Positions 16,872 through 60,339 of a stretch of 64,000 nt of DNA are shown piece after piece. This DNA comes from Minisyncoccota bacterium (GTDB lineage Bacteria > Patescibacteriota > Minisyncoccia > Phycocordibacterales > UBA9973). Each line of letters opens with the position of its first letter. Position 1 is the first letter of the stretch. The position numbers and the translations under genes were made by a program. The notes below the pieces were generated by a model. That model was not told where the DNA came from. It worked only from the letters and a program-made list of their open reading frames with translations, and ran no database searches. The stretch lies in contig JBAYHY010000001.1 in NCBI GenBank assembly GCA_041665885.1, positions 5,715 to 69,714 of the forward strand, read 5' to 3'.

Positions 16872-17388
16872 AAAAAAGCCGTCGAGAAACTCGACAGGCC
16901 TTTGGTGATAATTTGGGTGGGGAGGTTTCCTAGTGGAAACCTCCCCTAACCCTTTTGGTCACGATGTGGCTGTGGGGGATTGATTTTTGTTTTTGCCCCG
17001 TTAGCCCGACATGGCGACCGATGTGAGAGAGCAAGTTCGCGTCCTAGACGCCATGCTCTCACGACTCCAGAAAAACAACTAATTTTTTTCAAACAGGAGC
17101 TTTTACGACCTTCCTGGGGTCAAGTTGACCCGAGCTCCTTGGTCGCCGCCGAAGCCCTCAGGCTTCGACGAAACTGGCAGTGTCGCGCGCGTTTATCACG
17201 ACTCCCTCCCTTCTAATTCTTTCTTGGGCGCTGGTTAGCGGCCCATGCCGTCGGGCTTGCGGGCGGTGGCGAAGCCGGCGATCTTGGTCTTCTTCTTCGA
17301 ATTTTCCATCTTCTCGAGGAACCGGGGGGAACCGCGAATCATGCGAGCCTCCTACCGTGATAACCAGGGACCTCCCCCAGCTATCTTC
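16872..17388 (-). ncRNA. Candidate large (~515 nt) GC-rich structured RNA of unknown class, bounded by a consensus promoter and an intrinsic terminator
   Basis: The minus-strand promoter is TTGACA(comp 17417-17422)-16-TATACT(comp 17395-17400). The terminator on the minus strand is GUCGAG-uuu-CUCGAC-GGC-UUUUUU (16877-16895). Perfect hairpins are dense throughout, e.g. GGGGAGGTTTCC-tagt-GGAAACCTCCCC, GGGTCAAGTTGACCC, AGGAGCT...AGCTCCT and GTGAGAGAGC...GCTCTCAC. GC is far above background. Confidence 0.5.
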
Positions 17389-17394
17389 CCACAC

Positions 17395-17422
17395 AGTATA
17401 GCACTACTACAAAAAATGTCAA
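17395..17422 (-). promoter_or_regulatory. Consensus sigma70-like promoter (TTGACA-16-TATACT) driving the GC-rich RNA candidate
   Basis: The -35 and -10 hexamers are seen directly as complements of tgtcaa (17417-17422) and agtata (17395-17400). Confidence 0.6.
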
Positions 17423-24818: not shown

Positions 24819-25693
24819 GATTTTTCTATAATTCTCAACTTTGCGCTCCTGGACCTTGGATTATTTTTTATTTCTGACTCTTCCGCTTTTATTGGCTTTT
24901 TATTTATTAAAAATGCTAATCCCATTTTTTCTTTCTCTTTAAAAAATCTCTTGGTGATTCTGTCTTCCAAACTATGAAAAGAAATCACCGTCATTCTTCC
25001 TCCCCCCTTCAGTCTTTCAAATCCTTTTTCTAAACCCTTTTGAAGAACTCCCAACTCATCATTCACCGCGATTCGTAATGCTTGAAAGGTCCTTGTGGCA
25101 AAATGAATTCTCCCCCTCCTATATACTCCTGGCACTGCCCCCTCAATTATTTTTACTAAATCCTGGGTAGTATTTATCTTTGCGTTTTCCCTGGCTATTA
25201 CAATCGCTCGGGCTATTCTTCTTGAATATTTTTCTTCTCCATAACCATAAATGATATCCGCTAAATTTTTCTCCTCCCAAGTATTCACGATATCTTCCGC
25301 AGTGACATCTTCCGAAGAAGGATTTTCCTTCATGGTCATGAGTAGTGGTTCATCCTTCATAAAAGAAAATCCTCGTCCGGAATTCTCCAACTGGTCTGAA
25401 CTCAAACCAAGGTCAAAGATTATTCCATCCACTTTTTCATTACCCAAAACTTTGTCCAAATCGGAAAAATTTTCGTTGAAAAATGAAATCCTTATATCGT
25501 TTTGTTTCCACACGTTCTTGTCTTGATCTAAGGCAATGATTTTTACTTTTGGAAATCTTTTTAGGATTTCAATGCTGTGCCCTCCTCCTCCAAAAGTGCA
25601 GTCGAGAACAACGAGTTTCTCCTTCCCCGCCTTCTGCGGGGCAAGCAAACCTTCTATTGTTTCATTTAAAAGAACTGTCTTGTGAATACTCAT
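24815..25693 (-). CDS. rsmH: 16S rRNA (cytosine1402-N4)-methyltransferase RsmH (MraW)
   Basis: The HKTVLLNE start, DCTFGGGGHS SAM motif and GLSSDQL motif are present. Confidence 0.9.
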   Translation of the reverse strand: MSIHKTVLLNETIEGLLAPQKAGKEKLVVLDCTFGGGGHSIEILKRFPKVKIIALDQDKNVWKQNDIRISFFNENFSDLDKVLGNEKVDGIIFDLGLSSDQLENSGRGFSFMKDEPLLMTMKENPSSEDVTAEDIVNTWEEKNLADIIYGYGEEKYSRRIARAIVIARENAKINTTQDLVKIIEGAVPGVYRRGRIHFATRTFQALRIAVNDELGVLQKGLEKGFERLKGGGRMTVISFHSLEDRITKRFFKEKEKMGLAFLINKKPIKAEESEIKNNPRSRSAKLRIIEKS

Positions 25694-26118
25694 AACCTTT
25701 CTGCTAATTCTCCCGCCTGCTTTTCAACCAATTCTTGATTCTTTAACCATTCTTTGTCGTTCCAAATTTCCACCCTATCCTCTACTCCGATAATCGCCGC
25801 CTTGTCTTTGAGTCCAATTCTATCTTTCAAAAAATCAGGGATTAACATTCTGCCAATCGAATCTATTTCTACTTCCGCTGCCCGGCCAAACATGTATCGA
25901 TTGAAACTTCTTTGATCCGCCTTTAGAAAAGACAAGTCATTGTTACTGTTGGAAAGTCTCTCTTTTACCTTCACCCATTCCTTGGAGGTGAAAACGAACA
26001 AACAAGAATCGAGTCCGGGGGTAATAATAATTTTCTTGCCCATTTCTTTTCGGAATTTTACCGGAAGCGAAATGCGATTTTTTTCATCTATGGTGTGTAT
26101 GTATTCGCCGATGAGCAT
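25690..26118 (-). CDS. mraZ: Transcriptional regulator MraZ
   Basis: 142 aa. The duplicated MraZ fold shows DEKNRISLP and IDSIGRMLIP motifs. Confidence 0.9.
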   Translation of the reverse strand: MLIGEYIHTIDEKNRISLPVKFRKEMGKKIIITPGLDSCLFVFTSKEWVKVKERLSNSNNDLSFLKADQRSFNRYMFGRAAEVEIDSIGRMLIPDFLKDRIGLKDKAAIIGVEDRVEIWNDKEWLKNQELVEKQAGELAERL

Positions 26119-26158
26119 TTTAATTACGAAAATTATTAAAATTACTTATAAACAGATT

Positions 26159-26200
26159 TCCCACTTTTTCCCACTTAGTTAACATTATAAACCACTGTTA
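26159..26200 (-). promoter_or_regulatory. Putative MraZ operator: direct GTGGG/GTGGT repeats with ~10-bp periodicity upstream of mraZ
   Basis: The minus strand reads GTGGT-(21)-GTGGGaaaaaGTGGG (complements of 26192-26196, 26171-26175, 26161-26165). This matches the known GTGG[GT] direct-repeat architecture of MraZ boxes. Confidence 0.5.
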
Positions 26201-26300
26201 AAAATAACACCAAGCCAAATATGTGGATAACTCTAGCCCCGCCTAAAATTGACTAATATCATGAAATATGGCATATTCCATATCGGAAAGGAGGCGTTCG

Positions 26301-26498
26301 ATGAAAACACCGATTCTGGCTACCGGATGGGAAGAAGGAAAGGATATACACACGGTGGTAAAACACTTCGGAAACCGTGTCTCGCACCTTGGGACTACCA
26401 ACCACCCCTCCCATTTTGATCTCATGGACTGCACAGATGAGGACATTCAAAAGCTCAAGAAGATCGGCGTCACTGCGACAATAATCAAAGGGAGCTAG
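26301..26498 (+). CDS. Hypothetical small protein
   Basis: 65 aa from the ATG preceded by AGGAGG (MKTPILATGWEEG...). GC is elevated. The track ORF starts earlier, at 26268. Confidence 0.45.
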   Translation: MKTPILATGWEEGKDIHTVVKHFGNRVSHLGTTNHPSHFDLMDCTDEDIQKLKKIGVTATIIKGS

Positions 26499-26500
26499 CT

Positions 26501-26692
26501 GTGATGAAAGTGCGAATCAAAATTACCAGCCCCAAAAACGTAAGCCTCGAAGAACTCAAAACTATCTTCGGAGAATCGGTCTCCCGTGATGAAAAGGAGA
26601 AAGATATCTTCTCGGTTACCGGGAAAAAGATAAAGGAGATCACCGAAGGCTTGCGAGCCGCGGAAGTCGGTTTTCGGATCCTTTACCTGTAG
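26501..26692 (+). CDS. Hypothetical small protein
   Basis: 63 aa with a GTG/ATG start immediately after the previous stop (MKVRIKITSPKNVSLEEL...). GC is elevated. Confidence 0.4.
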   Translation: MMKVRIKITSPKNVSLEELKTIFGESVSRDEKEKDIFSVTGKKIKEITEGLRAAEVGFRILYL

Positions 26693-26713
26693 GGAGAACG
26701 ACGAAACACTGGG

Positions 26714-26890
26714 TTGACTTTCTACGTCAAATTTTGTATACTGTAATTCCTCCTTTCCGTGGATCCCAACCAGCCATTAGGGGATAAAGGTTTTGTCCTT
26801 AAGCCTCTTAGCCCAAAGCGTGGGCAGAGGGACCTCCTCGAAAACTGGTTGGGATCCACACCCACAATTTGTTCTTTGTTTTAATTTCAT
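26714..26890 (+). ncRNA. Candidate sRNA: consensus promoter (TTGACT-17-TATACT) + 15-bp perfect inverted repeat enclosing ~70 nt + U-rich tail; carries two CCUCCU (anti-SD-like) motifs
   Basis: The -35 is at 26714-26719 and the -10 at 26737-26742. The inverted repeat GTGGATCCCAACCAG (26759-26773) pairs with CTGGTTGGGATCCAC (26845-26859). The T-rich tract 26860-26890 follows. The predicted 5' end reads UUCCUCCUUUCC and GGACCUCCUCG is internal. Confidence 0.4.
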
Positions 26891-26910
26891 CAATCCGGCG
26901 CTCAGGCGCC

Positions 26911-26940
26911 ATAAAAATACCCCGGCTTCAATGCTGGGGT
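26911..26940 (-). terminator. Intrinsic terminator of lysS (ACCCCAGC...GCCGGGGT + U-tract on minus strand)
   Basis: The hairpin lies at 26919-26940. On the minus strand it is followed by AUUUUUAU. Confidence 0.6.
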
Positions 26941-26961
26941 ATCGTTCGTTTTGGGAAATTT

Positions 26962-28425
26962 CTATTCTAAATTTTTCGGTCGCATTAAAGGAAAAAGTTG
27001 AGTTTCTCGAACCGGCTTATCTACAAGAAACGCAAAAAATCTTTCTCCGAAGCCGAAACCGAAACAAGGGGGCATTCCATATTCAAGCATCTCCACAAAT
27101 TCCATGTCCGGCATCATTGCCTCCTCATCCCCTTCCATAATTAATTTCTTTTGTACTAGAAAACGCTCTTCCTGATCTAAAGGATTGTTGAGTTCTGCGT
27201 GCGCTCGGCCGATTTCACTTCCGGCGATTATGACTTGGAACATTTCTGTTTTTCTCTCATCATCTTTATTTTCCTTGGAAAGCGGGGCCACGAGCTTCGG
27301 ATGGTTTATGAGATAAACTGGGCCGGAAATATTCTTGCGACAATATTTCCAAAGTGAATCAGTCATCCTTTCTCTATTTTTGCCCTCAAACTCTACGCCT
27401 AATTTTTTAAGCGCCTGCTCCATTTTATCTTCCGAATCCTCGAGCACATCGATACCGGTTTGTTTTTTTACCTCTTCCACATAATCTACATCTTTCCAAT
27501 CATCAGCTAAATCAAACTTATGCCCCCTGGTTTCAAATGCTGTTTTGCCGAAAACATCCTCCGCTATTTTTATGTACAAATCTCTTACCAATTTTTTACC
27601 TTCTTCCGTATTCATGTATGAAGCATAAAATTCCATATTGGTAAATTCTTGGAGGTGTTCTGCACTTCCTCCTTCGTTTCTATACACTCTACCTATCTCA
27701 AAAGTTTTTGGGAATCCTGCCGCCATCAATCTCTTCTGCCACAACTCCCCGACAGAGATTCGAAGAAAAACATTAATATCAAAATCATTATGGTGTGTTT
27801 TAAATGGTCTAGCCTCCGCCCCCCCGGTGGTAATCTCTAAAGTGGGGGTTTCAACTTCCATAAACCCTTTGTCCTTTAAGAAATTTCTGGTTGTCGTCCA
27901 AAATTTCTCTTTTTTCTCAAAAATTTCCTTGAGTTCTGAATCCATCAACATATCCAAATAACGTTTTCGAAACCTTTCCTCTACGTCGACTAACCCATGC
28001 CATTTCTCAGGCAATGGGCGCAGGCTCTTCGCAAGCATACGCCAATCTTTCATTTCTACTGTTCTCTCTCCTCTGTTGGTTTTGAAAAAGGATCCTTGTA
28101 TTTCTACAAAATCCCCAATATCGACGACCTCATTCCAAAAATCGAATTTCTCATCCCCGATGACATCTTTCTTGAGAAGTCCTTGAAAAGTTCCCGTACC
28201 GTCGTTTAAGGTAATAAAAACAATCGCCCCTTGGCCACGGATAGACATGATTCTTCCGGCAACCCATTTTTCTCCTTTATTCTTTTCCAAGTCGTCAAAA
28301 ATACTTACGGCTTCCCGTAAAGTTATTTCCCTTTTTGAATCCGAGGGATATGGATTCATCCCCTTATCTTTTAAGAGTTTGAGTTTTTCTATTCTAGTGT
28401 CCCTAATTTCATCAATTGAAGACAT
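26962..28425 (-). CDS. lysS: Lysine--tRNA ligase (class II)
   Basis: 487 aa with an N-terminal OB anticodon-binding domain and class II motifs (FEIGRVYRNEG, GGSAEH..., GFGFGERF). Confidence 0.9.
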   Translation of the reverse strand: MSSIDEIRDTRIEKLKLLKDKGMNPYPSDSKREITLREAVSIFDDLEKNKGEKWVAGRIMSIRGQGAIVFITLNDGTGTFQGLLKKDVIGDEKFDFWNEVVDIGDFVEIQGSFFKTNRGERTVEMKDWRMLAKSLRPLPEKWHGLVDVEERFRKRYLDMLMDSELKEIFEKKEKFWTTTRNFLKDKGFMEVETPTLEITTGGAEARPFKTHHNDFDINVFLRISVGELWQKRLMAAGFPKTFEIGRVYRNEGGSAEHLQEFTNMEFYASYMNTEEGKKLVRDLYIKIAEDVFGKTAFETRGHKFDLADDWKDVDYVEEVKKQTGIDVLEDSEDKMEQALKKLGVEFEGKNRERMTDSLWKYCRKNISGPVYLINHPKLVAPLSKENKDDERKTEMFQVIIAGSEIGRAHAELNNPLDQEERFLVQKKLIMEGDEEAMMPDMEFVEMLEYGMPPCFGFGFGERFFAFLVDKPVRETQLFPLMRPKNLE

Positions 28426-40224: not shown

Positions 40225-40366
40225 GCGCGGTTAGCTCAGTTGTAGCGACGCCTGAAATACGCTGTAATTTTCATTTTATGATAAGATGAAAATTTGCGCG
40301 GTTAGCTCAATTGTAGCGACGCCTGAAATACGCTGTAATTTTCATTTTATGATAAGATGAAAATTT
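40225..40366 (+). repeat. Two tandem 71-nt repeats, each a degraded copy of the tRNA-Val 5' half plus a 9-bp-stem hairpin (AATTTTCAT...ATGAAAATT)
   Basis: Each unit (40225-40295 and 40296-40366) starts with gcgcggttagctca(g/a)ttg, which is identical to the tRNA-Val 5' end. Confidence 0.7.
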
Positions 40367-40439
40367 GCGCGGTTAGCTCAGTTGGTAGAGCGACCCCTTG
40401 ACGTGGGGTAGGCCACAGGTTCGAATCCTGTATCGCGCA
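40367..40439 (+). tRNA. tRNA-Val (anticodon GAC)
   Basis: The acceptor stem is GCGCGGU, the anticodon loop UUGACGU, and the T-loop UUCGAAU. The 3' trailer is ACCCA. Confidence 0.85.
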
Positions 40440-40465
40440 CCCACAAGATAAGGTAGAATTTATTT

Positions 40466-41620
40466 ATGAAAATTTTAAGCATAGAAACATCTTGCGATGA
40501 CACGGGAATAAGCATAATAGAAGCAAAAGGAGGCATTGAAGATGCTTCTTTTAAAGTTTTGGCAAATAATGTATCTTCACAAATTGACATTCACATCCCC
40601 TACGGAGGGGTATTTCCGGCGCTTGCCAAAAGAGAACATATAAAAAACTTACCTATTATTTTAGAAAAAACTCTTAAGGAGGCAAAACTAAATAAAAAAA
40701 CAAAACCTGTCGATCTTATCACGGTGACTTATGGTCCGGGTCTAGAGCCGACCCTCTGGACCGGGATAACTTTTGCGAAAGAACTTGCACAAAAATGGAA
40801 TGTGCCGGTAATGCCTGTGAATCATATGGAGGGACACATATTTTCTGTCTTTGTAAATAATAAAAAAACTTTCAAAATTCCAAAAATAAAATATCCGGTT
40901 CTTTCCTTGCTCGTATCTGGGGGCCATACGGAACTTGTCCTAACAAAAAAATGGATGAATTATGAAATCATCGGGCAAACCCTAGACGATGCTGTTGGTG
41001 AAGCTTTTGACAAGGCTGCAAGGATGCTCGGCCTCCCCTATCCGGGCGGACCACAAATTTCCATGCTGGCAGAATTGCTAAGAAAAAAAGGAAAACAATC
41101 TTTAGGGGGTGTCTCGCAGGCTGGCGAGCCGAGAGGCAGCGCTCCGCGAGCACGCGGAGACAGCGACCCCAAAAAGATTGATTTTTCTTTTTCTCTCCCC
41201 CGCCCGATGCTGCACAGCAAAAATTTTGATTTTTCTTTTTCCGGACTCAAAACAGCAGTTCTATATTTAGTGAGAGACCTTGGCTCTGTGGAAAAACTAA
41301 GCAAAAAGACAAAAGCGAAAATAGCCCTTGAGTTCGAGAATGCTGCGATAGAATCCCTGGTCCACAAGACAACCAAGGCGATTGAGAAATACAAAATCAA
41401 AACCCTTATCGTCGCAGGCGGAGTTTCGGCAAACAAATATTTAAGAGATGAGATGCAAAAAATTACCGACAAAAATGTAAAACTTTTATTACCTCAAAAA
41501 GAGCTCACCGGAGATAACTCCTTAATGATAGGTGTCGCTGGATATTTAAATTATATAAAAAACAAAAAAAGGGTTCCTCCGGCAAATAACATAAAAGCGA
41601 CTGGTAATTTAAGGCTATAA
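40466..41620 (+). CDS. tsaD: tRNA N6-adenosine threonylcarbamoyltransferase TsaD, carrying an in-frame GC-rich ~30-codon insertion
   Basis: The TsaD N-terminus (ILSIETSCDDTGISII), the HMEGH motif and DFSFSGLKTAV are present. An extra GKQSLGGVSQAGEPRGSAPRARGDSDPKK lies between GGP and the FPRPM-equivalent. Confidence 0.9.
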   Translation: MKILSIETSCDDTGISIIEAKGGIEDASFKVLANNVSSQIDIHIPYGGVFPALAKREHIKNLPIILEKTLKEAKLNKKTKPVDLITVTYGPGLEPTLWTGITFAKELAQKWNVPVMPVNHMEGHIFSVFVNNKKTFKIPKIKYPVLSLLVSGGHTELVLTKKWMNYEIIGQTLDDAVGEAFDKAARMLGLPYPGGPQISMLAELLRKKGKQSLGGVSQAGEPRGSAPRARGDSDPKKIDFSFSLPRPMLHSKNFDFSFSGLKTAVLYLVRDLGSVEKLSKKTKAKIALEFENAAIESLVHKTTKAIEKYKIKTLIVAGGVSANKYLRDEMQKITDKNVKLLLPQKELTGDNSLMIGVAGYLNYIKNKKRVPPANNIKATGNLRL

Positions 41621-57030: not shown

Positions 57031-57090
57031 ACAAAAAAAGGCAATTTTTGCCCTTTTTTTATTATAACACACAAAATTCAAATTATAAAA

Positions 57091-60000
57091 CTAGGGCGCT
57101 GGTTCCGTCGGGGGTTCCGGGGCTGGGTCAGCAGGGGCTGGGTCAGCGCAAACATTATTTACAAGTACCTGTGGAGCAACACATGTCGGGACGACTGGCG
57201 CGGGATCAGTGCAGGCGCCATCTACCAGGATTTGTGGAGCGGTGCAAACAGGCACTTCGGGAGCTGGGTCTACACATACATTGTCCACCAGGACTTGTGG
57301 AGCAACACAAGCAGGGGTGATAGGGACAACGCTTCCACCACCAGCACCCACCATCGCCTCAAGGGTGTCACCATTTGCGCAGAATTCCGTACCATCCGCT
57401 TTTGCCACACAAAGCTCTTTCGTATGAACACGATTGGCAAAGAAGTCCCCTATCCCATTCGTAGCATCTGCGAGCCAGGTACCCATGTTGGCAAAGAAAG
57501 CTGTCACGAAAGATTCGGAAGTGGAACCGGGTTCAGGGATAACTGTTCCGGCAATTCCTTCCAAGTTCAAATTGAGTTCCTTCACGGCATTAACGGTCGT
57601 GGCTAAAATAGCGTTTGTATCTAGGCCATAAGGATTCCCCAAGGAGTCATGGGTGGCCAATTCCGGAGCGACGGAATTTACTTCTTCAGAAATAAATCCG
57701 AAATGAATCGCATCGCCCATATTCATGTCCGGTTTGAATGTATACGAAACAGGACGAAGAGCCATCAGATTCGCCAAGCTGTCGGACAAATCATCGATGC
57801 TGTCCTTGAAACGTTCCGATGAAGGAGTACAAATAATGTTCCCGGAAACATCCACCGAGATAGTCCCGGCCGTGGTGCATCCCGCTTGTTGGATTACTCC
57901 CGCATTCGTCACACTAAACTTACTTACCCCTCCTACCTGTGCATCAATTAAATTCCCGCTTGTCTTTGCGGTAGGGTTGATTAAAAAATCTGTGAGAGCG
58001 GAAGAATCTGCTTTTACTAAATGCAATTGTGCTGTCGGTGCTGTTATCCCGATACCGACACTGCCGTTGTTTAGAATCGTCATCGCTGTCGTTCCAGCAC
58101 TTTCTCCCACCTTTAAAATAAGGTTTGCATTGGTCAAAGTATTTCCGGTAGTATTGTTGCCCTGTAAGGTCAGGGTGCCGTTCGCCACCGTTGAACCATT
58201 GACCAATGGGTCAGTAATTGACGTCGTAAAGGTCGGAGAATTTAGACGGACAAAATTCCCAGTCCCCGTGCCCGTGTATTCCGCCGAAGTGAGGTGGTAA
58301 TATTGATCCGCACTCCCTCCCTGCAACCCTACGAGTTGATTATGACGAACAACCATCGGAGTGTGAAAGTGAGTATAATTGGCTGTTCCATTATGTACTA
58401 GGCTAACTGTCGTATTCGATGTCCTTGTTGTTCGTCCATAAAATTTAACCACCAACCTGTCTGTAGGATTAATAGCAAAGGCCGGCTGCACGGTTGTGAC
58501 TGAAGCCAAAAATACTGAGGTAGAATTAATATCTGGAGTCTCTGTCGTAAACAAAAGCGTTTCCACTCCTCCCGAGTCTCTCTTGTAAACCTCTGCCCTG
58601 ATGACTGATATTTGGACTGTGCTACTTAAATATCCATAGATGTCAAATTGCCACACTCCAGCCTCTATGGAAGTACTTCCCAACCCGAGAGGTGAAGAAG
58701 CATATGATTCAATCAACGCTGTGCTGTTGTTCACAACAACAGAATCGACAATTTGAGGAAGACTAGTCGGGGCGGGGGTCAGGGTAACGTACGACGGAAT
58801 ATCGGAGGCAGTATCGTCTAAATAAAAACTGACTCCGGCGCCACCACTTACCGTATCTGGATTTACATTCACCCAGGTACTGCCATTATATGCCAAGACC
58901 TGGTTTGCGGTGGGTGTCAGTGCCCCAACGTCGGAAAGGTTCGCTAGTCCTATTTGTGTGCCATCAATTCTAAACAAGGACCCTGACGATAAATTCAAAT
59001 CCCCCGCTACGTCTAATTTATACCCGGGTACAATTGTTCCAATCCCGACTCTATGATTTACTGAATCCACAAAAAGAGAATTAGTGTCCACCGTTAAACT
59101 ATGAGCTCCTAAATCTACATTTGAAGTTCCCCCAGTAAAAGGAACATACGAGGAGAGACTACCCGTCGTTGCGAATGCACTCGCATGATTGCCATCCAAC
59201 ATATCTGCATTAAGATTAGAAACAAGGGTAGTCGAGGCGATAGACAATGGAGCCGTACCTGTCGCTATTGCAGACTTCAAAGTATTCCCGCGCACTTCAC
59301 CAGTATCTCCATCGAGCCAGGCTGAAGAAGTAGAGCCATTGTTTGTCTCAATATGACTCGGAGTGATGAGAGAGAGATGCCCTGTCCCATCTGTATAATT
59401 CATACCGCCAAGAAAGCCCCCCAACATGAACGAAAGGTTTTGATTTTGTGTAGGATCAGATGAATCGTTGTAAGAAAGACTAATATTGTTCGTGGCTACT
59501 GTCGTAGCTTGTGTAACCGTACCAATCGTCTGTAAAAAAGTTAAATTATTCTGAGCAAGAGAAGTGTAGTCGGTACTTGGAGTTCCGAAAAATACATTGC
59601 CGGGCTTGATTGACCCGCTGGTTGTTAAATCATTTACTCCCAAATCCACATCCCCCGTCGCCCCGGTGTAAGGCACCAGGCCAGACAAATCAGGAATACT
59701 GCCAACTGGTCCCCAGGCTGTACCATTAAAATATTTGTAAGTATTGGTAGTGGTGTCGTAAGAGAGATCTCCGGCCACTCCTGTAGGCAGTGAAGCAGTA
59801 GGAAAACCTGTGCTGTTGAAATATTTTGCCGTTAGTTTGTTTCCACCCAAAGCGACATCCCCCGTCGCCCCAGTGTAATGTAAAACATCATCAGATAAAT
59901 CATGTATCGTGTCATTGATTGAATCATATATTGCAGCCACTTGATTATCAAAGAAAGATTTAGAAACAAAAGAAGATGTGTTGATGCTCCCTCCCCCCGA

Positions 60001-60339
60001 TGAACCTTGAGGGCCTGCTGGACCTACGGGACCCTGCGCGCCAGTCGGGCCGACTGGACCACGGGGACCTGTTGGACCTGAAATTCCTTGAGAACCCTGC
60101 GCGCCAGGAGCAGCAACTTGAATCACCGGAGATGGGACATTTGTTTTTATGGGCGCTATACTTGAGGGAACGACCACTTCAAACACAAATGGAGAAATGA
60201 GATTTTTATATGCATCGACTAAATATGTAAAAGGATTGAAAGCTAGGGCTGGAGTGGCAAAAGAAAAAGTGGCCGATAGAAAGAATATCGAGATTAAAAA
60301 CTTTTTTATAAATAATATAAAACTTTTCTTTTTTAACAT
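57091..60339 (-). CDS. Large secreted fibre protein: signal peptide, collagen-like GXY repeats, long beta-rich Gly/Thr/Ser/Asn stalk, C-terminal intramolecular-chaperone (peptidase S74-like) domain and Cys-containing C-terminal repeats
   Basis: 1082 aa. The N-terminus is MLKKKSFILFIKKFLISIFFLSATFSFATPALA. A GXY run follows (GAQGSQGISGPTGPRGPVGPTGAQGPVGPAGPQG). Near the C-terminus, SSERFKDSIDDL...LRPVSYTFK...HFGFISEEV matches the tail-fibre/endosialidase chaperone signature. Three C(V/T)APQ(V/I)LVD..C.DPAP repeats follow. Confidence 0.65.
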   Translation of the reverse strand: MLKKKSFILFIKKFLISIFFLSATFSFATPALAFNPFTYLVDAYKNLISPFVFEVVVPSSIAPIKTNVPSPVIQVAAPGAQGSQGISGPTGPRGPVGPTGAQGPVGPAGPQGSSGGGSINTSSFVSKSFFDNQVAAIYDSINDTIHDLSDDVLHYTGATGDVALGGNKLTAKYFNSTGFPTASLPTGVAGDLSYDTTTNTYKYFNGTAWGPVGSIPDLSGLVPYTGATGDVDLGVNDLTTSGSIKPGNVFFGTPSTDYTSLAQNNLTFLQTIGTVTQATTVATNNISLSYNDSSDPTQNQNLSFMLGGFLGGMNYTDGTGHLSLITPSHIETNNGSTSSAWLDGDTGEVRGNTLKSAIATGTAPLSIASTTLVSNLNADMLDGNHASAFATTGSLSSYVPFTGGTSNVDLGAHSLTVDTNSLFVDSVNHRVGIGTIVPGYKLDVAGDLNLSSGSLFRIDGTQIGLANLSDVGALTPTANQVLAYNGSTWVNVNPDTVSGGAGVSFYLDDTASDIPSYVTLTPAPTSLPQIVDSVVVNNSTALIESYASSPLGLGSTSIEAGVWQFDIYGYLSSTVQISVIRAEVYKRDSGGVETLLFTTETPDINSTSVFLASVTTVQPAFAINPTDRLVVKFYGRTTRTSNTTVSLVHNGTANYTHFHTPMVVRHNQLVGLQGGSADQYYHLTSAEYTGTGTGNFVRLNSPTFTTSITDPLVNGSTVANGTLTLQGNNTTGNTLTNANLILKVGESAGTTAMTILNNGSVGIGITAPTAQLHLVKADSSALTDFLINPTAKTSGNLIDAQVGGVSKFSVTNAGVIQQAGCTTAGTISVDVSGNIICTPSSERFKDSIDDLSDSLANLMALRPVSYTFKPDMNMGDAIHFGFISEEVNSVAPELATHDSLGNPYGLDTNAILATTVNAVKELNLNLEGIAGTVIPEPGSTSESFVTAFFANMGTWLADATNGIGDFFANRVHTKELCVAKADGTEFCANGDTLEAMVGAGGGSVVPITPACVAPQVLVDNVCVDPAPEVPVCTAPQILVDGACTDPAPVVPTCVAPQVLVNNVCADPAPADPAPEPPTEPAP

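Follow-up and report, generated by a model that had tools for sequence, protein, structure and literature searches.

Palindromic repeats that occur both between genes and in-frame inside conserved genes are known from Rickettsia as Rickettsia palindromic elements (RPEs; Ogata et al. 2000 Science 290:347; PMC2229807; PMC10969869). The RPE peptide in gmk is translated and tolerated at the protein level (PMC2229807), and such “protein-coding palindromes” were later presented as something peculiar to Rickettsia (Ogata et al. 2002 Genome Res 12:808). Here we analyze a GC-rich segment inside tsaD in a 64,000-nucleotide stretch of DNA, referred to as the window, from a Minisyncoccota bacterium (assembly GCA_041665885.1, contig JBAYHY010000001.1, positions 5,715 to 69,714 of the forward strand). 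A first-pass annotation of the window had proposed an in-frame insertion resembling a transposable element of the miniature inverted-repeat type (MITE), tolerated in a surface loop, or else a structured RNA embedded in an open reading frame (ORF). The first proposal is now supported by polymorphism of the segment, copies at other sites, inverted arms and predicted disorder. We consider it very probable that the tsaD segment is a MITE-like protein-coding palindrome, comparable to the RPEs of Rickettsia, and that it is translated as a disordered passenger surface loop.

The element is like an RPE in being a palindrome of ~100–150 bp with a stable, long stem-loop that is found in-frame in housekeeping genes of a reduced-genome host and yields a recurrent peptide. 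It differs in its host (Patescibacteria rather than Alphaproteobacteria) and in its conserved part, which is here an internal three-way-junction core, whereas the arms are variable. In addition, both orientations are found here at one codon site, with several subfamilies replacing each other. As the host phylum differs, we do not file the element as an RPE; the likeness is one of behavior. A full-text literature search, in which not all journals were covered, returned no description of such elements in the Candidate Phyla Radiation (CPR)/Patescibacteria. The element would represent an unrelated, widespread family with RPE-like behavior in bacteria that also have tiny genomes and depend on hosts. 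The same behavior in two reduced-genome groups suggests that the phenomenon recurs where genomes are reduced.

Other described systems share some of these features. Like the MITEs Correia/NEMIS, ERIC, RUP and YPAL (PMC2229807, PMC10969869), the element is small, lacks coding capacity of its own and is multicopy with terminal inverted repeats, and it shares with them long stem-loop transcripts, occasional in-frame fusion to ORFs and possible short target duplications. However, classical MITEs keep the terminal repeat of a parent insertion sequence, while here the arms vary and the internal core alone is conserved. Palindromes of the REP/BIME-RAYT type (repetitive extragenic palindromes, bacterial interspersed mosaic elements and their REP-associated tyrosine transposases) and those derived from IS200/IS605 (PMC3733652) offer a precedent for recognition by structure, which fits hairpins with conserved unpaired bases and varying stems. 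A conserved, strand-specific wobble in our element is compatible with a single-strand intermediate of this kind, which we regard as a mechanistic lead only. REPs, in contrast, are 20–40 nt long, extragenic and marked by a GTAG/CGTC end tag (PMC3733652), whereas our units are 87–125 nt long and often intragenic, with GACG/CGTC present only as the loop of hairpin 1 and not as an end tag. The coding palindromes of Nematomorpha mitochondria (PMC6649704) are also long, near-perfect inverted repeats inside translated genes, although they are not dispersed as a family sharing one core, and conserved host residues are encoded by both of their arms. Those arms have been proposed to be kept perfect by template switching or arm-to-arm conversion (PMC6649704), which, by analogy, could also lie behind the perfect, site-specific arms described below. 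The segment does not correspond to an intein or to a group I or II intron, as it encodes 31 residues without intein blocks, matches no intron model and is found in both orientations.

The extra segment of TsaD and its fold

The tsaD product matches PF00814 (E=1.1e-79) and solved bacterial TsaD chains (E=5e-72 to 6e-66, both fold halves). HMMER alignments to these PDB chains are split: query residues 1–203 and 242–363 match, and residues 204–241 (38 residues) stand opposite only 5–7 residues in chains of the Aquifex, E. coli, Salmonella and T. maritima type. About 30 surplus residues, close to the ~29 extra codons first noted between GGP and the FPRPM equivalent, are located between ..GGPQISMLAE and ..FSLPRPM and have no counterpart in solved structures. 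The two TsaD fold halves lie on either side of the element, and all family-invariant residues are outside the insert. An AlphaFold2 (AF2) model based on a 120-sequence alignment has a mean predicted local distance difference test (pLDDT) score of 86.6 and a predicted template modeling (pTM) score of 0.85. Within this otherwise confident model, residues 210–240 have a pLDDT below 50 (about 30) and no secondary structure, bordered by a helix (residues 194–212) and the conserved LPRPM segment; the last residues (382–384) are also low.

The DNA of the segment is GC-rich within an AT-rich gene, with a G+C peak of 0.75 in a 60-nt span over 41094–41183, the joint highest across the 64 kb (mean 0.403, sd 0.093). 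The RNA fold of 41095–41185 has an energy of −45.5 kcal/mol (z=−5.2), equaled by 0 of 200 shuffles, and the single-stranded DNA (ssDNA) fold of 41081–41195 an energy of −32.7 kcal/mol (z=−6.4). An ungapped alignment of 84 distinct copies (A1) and a covariance model built from it (R1) defined the anatomy of the element. R1 matches the window at 41081–41196 with 107 bits (E=1e-28), which is its sole real match there. The features are as follows, all on the + strand.

40466..41620, +, host gene tsaD, 384 residues, an intact ORF reading through the element (ORF list, Pfam, PDB, AF2)
41081..41195, +, whole palindromic unit (arms and core) in forward orientation (R1, ssDNA fold)
41081..41105, +, left A/T-rich arm (..GGAAAACAATCTTTAG), base-paired to the right arm and coding in part for KKGKQSLG (inverted repeat I1/I2)
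41093..41185, +, element-encoded peptide GKQSLGGVSQAGEPRGSAPRARGDSDPKKID, codons 210–240, predicted disordered loop (AF2 pLDDT, PDB comparison)
41106..41170, +, 65-nt GC-rich core, a three-way junction (A1, pair counts)
41106..41110 with 41166..41170, +, stem P1, GGGGT with ACCCC (A1, pair counts)
41111..41137, +, arm P2, GUCUC (41111–41115) with GAGGC (41133–41137), enclosing hairpin 1 (covariation)
41119..41130, +, hairpin 1, GGCT (41119–41122), loop GGCG (41123–41126), AGCC (41127–41130) (covariation)
41139..41164, +, arm P3, which is hairpin 2, GCGCTCCGCG (41139–41148), loop AGCA (41149–41152), CGCGGAG-a-C-a-GC (41153–41164) (covariation, repeat I6)
41171..41195, +, right arm (AAAAAGATTGATTTTTCTTTTTCTC), encoding KKIDFSFS (inverted repeat, covariation)

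The internal palindrome CTCCGCG-agca-CGCGGAG recognized in the first-pass annotation is a perfect 7-bp inverted repeat (41142–41148 and 41153–41159) within hairpin 2, and the GGGGT and ACCCC ends do pair, as P1. The pairing that the annotation had drawn between GTCTCGC and GCGGAGAC is not supported by covariation, which instead pairs GUCUC with GAGGC in P2. The terminal inverted repeat, whose absence would have counted against its proposal, is present as the arms: the 27-nt arms 41084–41110 and 41166–41192 are 78% complementary. A41181, placed by hand from the sequence, is a 1-nt bulge that shifts the outer arm relative to the inner arm.

Pairing is strongly conserved across A1. Paired cells amount to 83.1%, compared to 65.5% in shuffles and 41–49% in slid controls, and 842 cells carry double changes, compared to 335 in shuffles. 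The first pair of P2 (G31-C57) is replaced by C-G in 11 of the 84 copies, and the closing pair of the 4-bp hairpin 1 (columns 42–47) is CG in 41, UA in 38 and GC in 4. The five variable inner pairs of hairpin 2 are ~99% Watson-Crick with almost no G-U, and each has undergone 29–40 double changes. The nucleotides of the junction and loops are invariant, and a U-G wobble (columns 32–56) is constant on one element strand in 84/84 copies, which suggests a single-stranded DNA or RNA form.

Beyond the core, the inner arms (~10 nt; the left T-rich, the right A-rich) are well paired and covary, with columns 13–25 mostly paired over the 84 copies. The outer arms are site-specific in sequence and reach up to 32 perfect base pairs. 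Inverted arms of 10–32 nt are found on essentially all copies, although their sequence is not conserved between sites. At 87–125 nt, the units are within the size range of MITEs (less than ~300 bp); they have no ORF of their own and are read only within host ORFs. No Rfam 15 family, self-cleaving ribozymes and riboswitches included, was found at the element when the window was searched at the gathering threshold, and at E≤10 the best matches were generic hairpin models of 20 bits, compared to thresholds of 70–80. An expanded variant of 149 nt (L044:3301–3449) contains two hairpins in place of the hairpin-2 arm; as one of these repeats the CGCAGG..CCGA motif, it may be a nested insertion.

Dispersal in Patescibacteria and turnover at the tsaD site

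When one genome per species was scanned for a core pattern of 23 specified bases, at least 119 stretches were identified in at least 88 assemblies. All matches listed, to which the following counts refer, are Patescibacteria metagenome-assembled genomes, labeled Nomurabacteria, Kaiserbacteria, Paceibacterota, Parcubacteria, Minisyncoccia and others. Two to four core matches are present in at least 18 of the 88 assemblies. When ORFs spanning the copies were clustered, the largest groups were UvrD/PcrA (24, at two sites), TsaD (21) and Tgt (13), followed by UvrB and IleS (4 each), Fmt (3), the CCA-adding enzyme, RecG and MnmA (2 each) and others. Some 35 copies are either noncoding or covered by nothing longer than short ORFs; those checked are mostly intergenic and frequently ~10–30 nt from a stop codon. 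A single assembly (MFWK01) has copies in Tgt, IleS, MnmA and TsaD. A metagenome scan with the hairpin-1 variant of the window added 11 loci in other genes, with an RluA-type pseudouridine synthase and DNA polymerase I (PolA) as further hosts. UvrD, Tgt, UvrB, IleS, Fmt, the CCA-adding enzyme, RecG, MnmA, the RluA-type synthase and PolA were all confirmed with Pfam. Other copies, for which the first-pass annotation had suggested searching the genome, are numerous in other genes and intergenic sites of related genomes.

Two A-type copies are located in one uvrD/pcrA ORF in each of L034 (3940–6117) and L110, at approximately residues 95 and 420–450, and L034 contains a third, divergent copy 1 kb further downstream. 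The IleS protein of L073 (876 residues) contains, besides the element, a histidine-phosphatase domain (PF00300, E=4e-19) amid the class I synthetase domain.

R1 also detects two further subfamilies, D and E, in tsaD and at intergenic sites, and additional divergent copies in nine fetched loci. Types A, D and E are built on the same plan, namely CGCAGG, a 4-bp hairpin, CCGAG, 29 nt including the second hairpin, and GCGAC. D- and E-type cores occupy the same tsaD site in other frames and orientations. As the three types share a nucleotide plan but differ in reading frame, the conserved entity is a nucleotide element and not a protein loop. No A-type or E-type core was found in viral contigs.

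Among the 120 best homologues of TsaD, which all come from metagenome assemblies of Patescibacteria/CPR and are 66–82% identical to the query, the site is highly polymorphic. The insert is absent in 13, reads GVSQADGPRGSAPRARGDSDP in 47 and GSLSPRARGALPLGPSACETP in 4, and consists of several other peptides in the rest; one protein (P0075) has two tandem inserts. The nearest relative, P0002, is insert-free, despite being ~90% identical outside the loop (88% in the MAFFT alignment). The alignment of orthologues proposed earlier thus revealed a polymorphic insert, and a loop of equal length with conserved amino acids is not common to all close relatives, the pattern that would have pointed to a lineage feature. 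For 71 of the 120, the nearest neighbor (about 77–95% identical outside the loop) is in a different insert state, and among TsaD proteins 80–95% identical outside the loop the states include empty, forward, reverse and other subfamilies. A filled allele is separated from an empty one, 92% identical as a protein, by a clean gap of 84 nt.

Several of these states are reverse complements of one another. In L002, the insert in tsaD corresponds to the window element reverse-complemented, arms included, and the GSLSPRARGALPLGPSACETP-type core is ~90% identical to the reverse complement of the GVSQADGPRGSAPRARGDSDP-type core. A third peptide type in tsaD is likewise the reverse complement of a fourth. 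R1 matches the + strand in the window, L004, L006 and L007, and the − strand in L002, L005 and the second copy of L008. When the window element is inverted in silico, tsaD stays open, and inversion about the axis of the outer arms, which is offset by the 1-nt bulge, yields the reverse-type (B) peptide of relatives. This result is compatible with a flip or a re-insertion alike. A simple flip of type A about the inner-arm axis was rejected as the origin of type B, since it gives a frame that is never observed.

That the outer arms arose by inverted duplication of the host flank, or that the element inserted into a hairpin already present, was considered and not adopted: empty tsaD alleles fold only weakly (z −1.3 and −2.2), and complementary flanks are lacking at recent intergenic copies. 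The loop site of tsaD draws palindromes of more than one kind. In L008 (3294–3519), an A-type copy in forward orientation is followed in tandem by a D-type copy in reverse, resulting in a TsaD of 427 residues. In L130 (tsaD at 1501–2607), whose TsaD shares 95% identity with P0003 apart from the loop, a perfect but unrelated 48-nt palindrome (GCCCCTACACCTGGTGTC, a 12-nt loop, GACACCAGGTGTAGGGGC; ssDNA z=−7.5) occupies the identical site.

Probable mobility, constraint and rival explanations

Signs of mobility include similar copies within single genomes. One Nomurabacteria assembly (MFVF01) contains three copies of 123 nt that are nearly identical, have terminal inverted repeats of 29 nt and differ in their flanks, which are unrelated; two are flanked by TAG..TAG or CTA..CTA, and to the left of the third there is a sequence gap. 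Within assemblies, 17 of 45 pairs have identical hairpin-2 stems, compared to 575 of 6858 (8.4%) between assemblies, and in CAYIBP01 one hairpin-2 stem is common to intergenic, Tgt and UvrB copies. Of 34 copies in higher-GC genomes, 15 have the tetranucleotide CGAG immediately beyond each end of the palindrome, compared to ~0.1 expected. No clear target-site duplication was seen at the tsaD site, no empty site was recovered in metagenomes for the recent copy L040, and among the fetched loci a half-site census revealed no ORF flanked by a split element. In the window, none of the other element host genes was found by tblastn for a further comparison of filled and empty alleles. As to a second copy in the window, a regular-expression search over 202 kb returned the tsaD copy alone.

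Reading frames are kept open with great regularity. In the consensus, all six frames of the core are free of stops. All 80 clean coding copies are in-frame with their host, using one phase per orientation and two recurrent peptides: the 43 forward copies read GVSQ... (GVSQADGPRGSAPRARGDSDP) and the 37 reverse copies GSLS... (GSLSPRARGALPLGPSACETP). This count takes clean coding copies, the residual cases being spurious long ORFs in G+C-rich genomes. Such a single phase suggests that insertions in other frames, which would encode Arg/Cys-rich peptides, have been removed by selection. Conservation at codon positions 1, 2 and 3 is 0.92, 0.94 and 0.93 (core columns not forced by the search pattern), which is a signature of nucleotide-level constraint or recent spread, rather than of peptide selection.

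We propose that the element is a non-autonomous, hairpin-forming mobile repeat located in the surface-loop-coding part of tsaD, in which a 65-nt three-way-junction core is closed by A/T-rich inverted arms. As the length of the insert is a multiple of three and its core is stop-free, the tsaD frame is kept open and the element is transcribed and presumably translated. It would then add ~30 hydrophilic, disordered residues to TsaD, away from the conserved motifs and probably roughly neutral for the enzyme; we claim no role for them in N6-threonylcarbamoyladenosine (t6A) formation. Copies would spread within Patescibacteria genomes to intergenic sites and to loops of housekeeping genes in either orientation, and those at the tsaD site are gained, lost, flipped and replaced over short evolutionary time. 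The constraint is on nucleotide structure (the junction and loop bases, and the pairing) and not on the peptide. The invariant three-way junction points to an enzyme recognizing it, and the folded structure is most likely the recognition site of a trans-acting enzyme, possibly on single-stranded or hairpin DNA. Hairpin-targeted insertion, copy-to-copy conversion and flipping between arms are candidate reasons for the repeated use of the same sites.

A broader, tentative proposal, which we regard as possible though on balance doubtful, is that an as yet undescribed Patescibacteria superfamily of structure-defined mobile hairpins (A, D and E, with the CGCAGG-hairpin-CCGAG-29 nt-GCGAC core) repeatedly colonizes, flips and is replaced at the same loop-coding sites, as may be the case in the essential genes tsaD, uvrD, tgt and uvrB. 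This would proceed by a site-directed mechanism on folded ssDNA, such as hairpin-targeted insertion or copy-to-copy conversion, and not by random transposition. If true, minimal proteomes would receive a steady supply of new translated surface loops. The elements explain GC-rich insertions and length differences in CPR core genes, and thus affect alignments, the trimming of phylogenomic markers and structure prediction; the covariance model can be used to mask or census them. Their rapid gain, loss and inversion at fixed sites also provides a natural experiment on the tolerance of essential enzymes for random loops.

Several observations weigh against a mobile, translated passenger. Evidence from target-site duplication is weak, with two clean cases, and the CGAG motif is lineage-restricted and could instead belong to the element. 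Neither a transposase, HUH transposases near the copies included, nor an autonomous partner turned up, although no systematic search was made for one. The outer arms differ among sites, unlike the conserved terminal repeats of classical MITEs, and the outer stem is partly present in empty tsaD alleles, so that the true boundaries of the element are uncertain. The 64-kb window contains no second copy, by two core sub-patterns with up to 3 mismatches or by R1 without filters. The maintained frames are the sole basis for translation, and the use of only one frame per orientation hints at selection at the peptide level, such that the peptide may not be wholly neutral. Weak R1 matches at 40266–40365 and 25309–25383 were considered as second copies and rejected as generic hairpins.

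The most serious rival is that the element is a domesticated non-coding RNA, small and structured, or else a ligand of a host protein in RNA or ssDNA form, whose copies are functional genes or binding sites and need to keep the frame merely where they fall inside ORFs. Such a function would account for covarying stems, for junction and loop bases and a U-G wobble that are invariant across very different lineages, and for the frequent location of intergenic copies directly downstream of genes. The lack of any Rfam match, permissive thresholds included, speaks against it, as does the window copy, at which no promoter-like or terminator-like signal was seen. A hairpin-2 stem nearly free of G-U pairs would be unusual under selection on RNA. 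Moreover, presence or absence differs among near-identical hosts, and the near-identical copies within genomes resemble proliferation rather than a conserved gene set. We consider this explanation improbable.

Less probable still is a cis-acting mRNA structure regulating tsaD or the downstream valS, whether by RNase III cleavage, translational pausing or attenuation, and retained for that function. In its favor are the very stable sense-strand fold and the position of the element between the TsaD fold halves; a terminator-like tail is absent. In close relatives the site is reversed, empty or filled by other subfamilies, and the element is common to more than 10 unrelated genes. In reverse-oriented coding copies, a rough ungapped count of arm mismatches on the mRNA strand gives more A-C than G-U (85 vs 45); the modest G-U excess lies on the element strand regardless of gene orientation, which, with the same reservation about the count, argues against selection at the mRNA level. 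Of the structured RNA envisaged in the first-pass annotation, the structure is real and conserved, whereas a tsaD-specific role in the mRNA is argued against by copies in both orientations relative to their host genes.

A functional, lineage-specific extension of TsaD, for example a docking loop for TsaB/TsaE or tRNA with its peptide under selection, would explain why GVSQADGPRGSAPRARGDSDP recurs little changed in many TsaD proteins and why one of three open frames is used per orientation. It would not explain equal conservation at the three codon positions, an opposite strand read as an unrelated peptide at the same site, copies in many unrelated proteins and between genes, or close relatives without the insert. 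The loop is also predicted to be disordered, and we judge this explanation very improbable.

An intron-like intervening sequence, removed by long-stem processing and religation of the RNA and never reaching the protein, is the least probable of all: CPR bacteria are known for insertions in rRNA genes and the flanks form a long closing stem similar to the stems at which intervening sequences of bacterial rRNA are processed, but the strict retention of frame in a single phase per orientation (80/80 clean coding copies) is unexpected if the RNA is excised, no ribozyme or intron matches, 65–115 nt is far below the size of group I or II introns, and the non-ORF copies tested are not in rRNA genes. 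The higher-GC non-ORF copies had been considered as rRNA intervening sequences and were rejected, as Rfam shows no rRNA there.

Other structured stretches of the window

Besides the tsaD palindrome, the window contains other structured or GC-rich stretches. At 26759–26859, perfect 15-nt arms (GTGGATCCCAACCAG and CTGGTTGGGATCCAC) enclose 71 nt, with an RNA fold of −52.8 kcal/mol (z=−5.4). This palindrome is located in an ORF-free gap of ~840 nt (26118–26962) and matches neither Rfam nor R1. G+C reaches 0.73 at 17090–17400, which may be a divergent structured RNA gene; no Rfam family matches there at the gathering threshold. Two further G+C peaks, at 59978–60093 (0.75) and 57083–57159 (0.73), contain short direct repeats such as GGGCTGGGTCAGC and CCCTGCGCGCCAG; both pattern and R1 show them to be unrelated to the element. 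Immediately upstream of tRNA-Val (40366–40443), within 40225–40443, are two tandem 71-nt units, each opening with a copy of approximately the first 18 tRNA nucleotides (GCGCGGTTAGCTCAGTTG) and closing with the palindrome AATTTTCATTTTATGATAAGATGAAAATT. These units have the appearance of remnants left by integration or duplication that recurred at the tRNA-Val gene.

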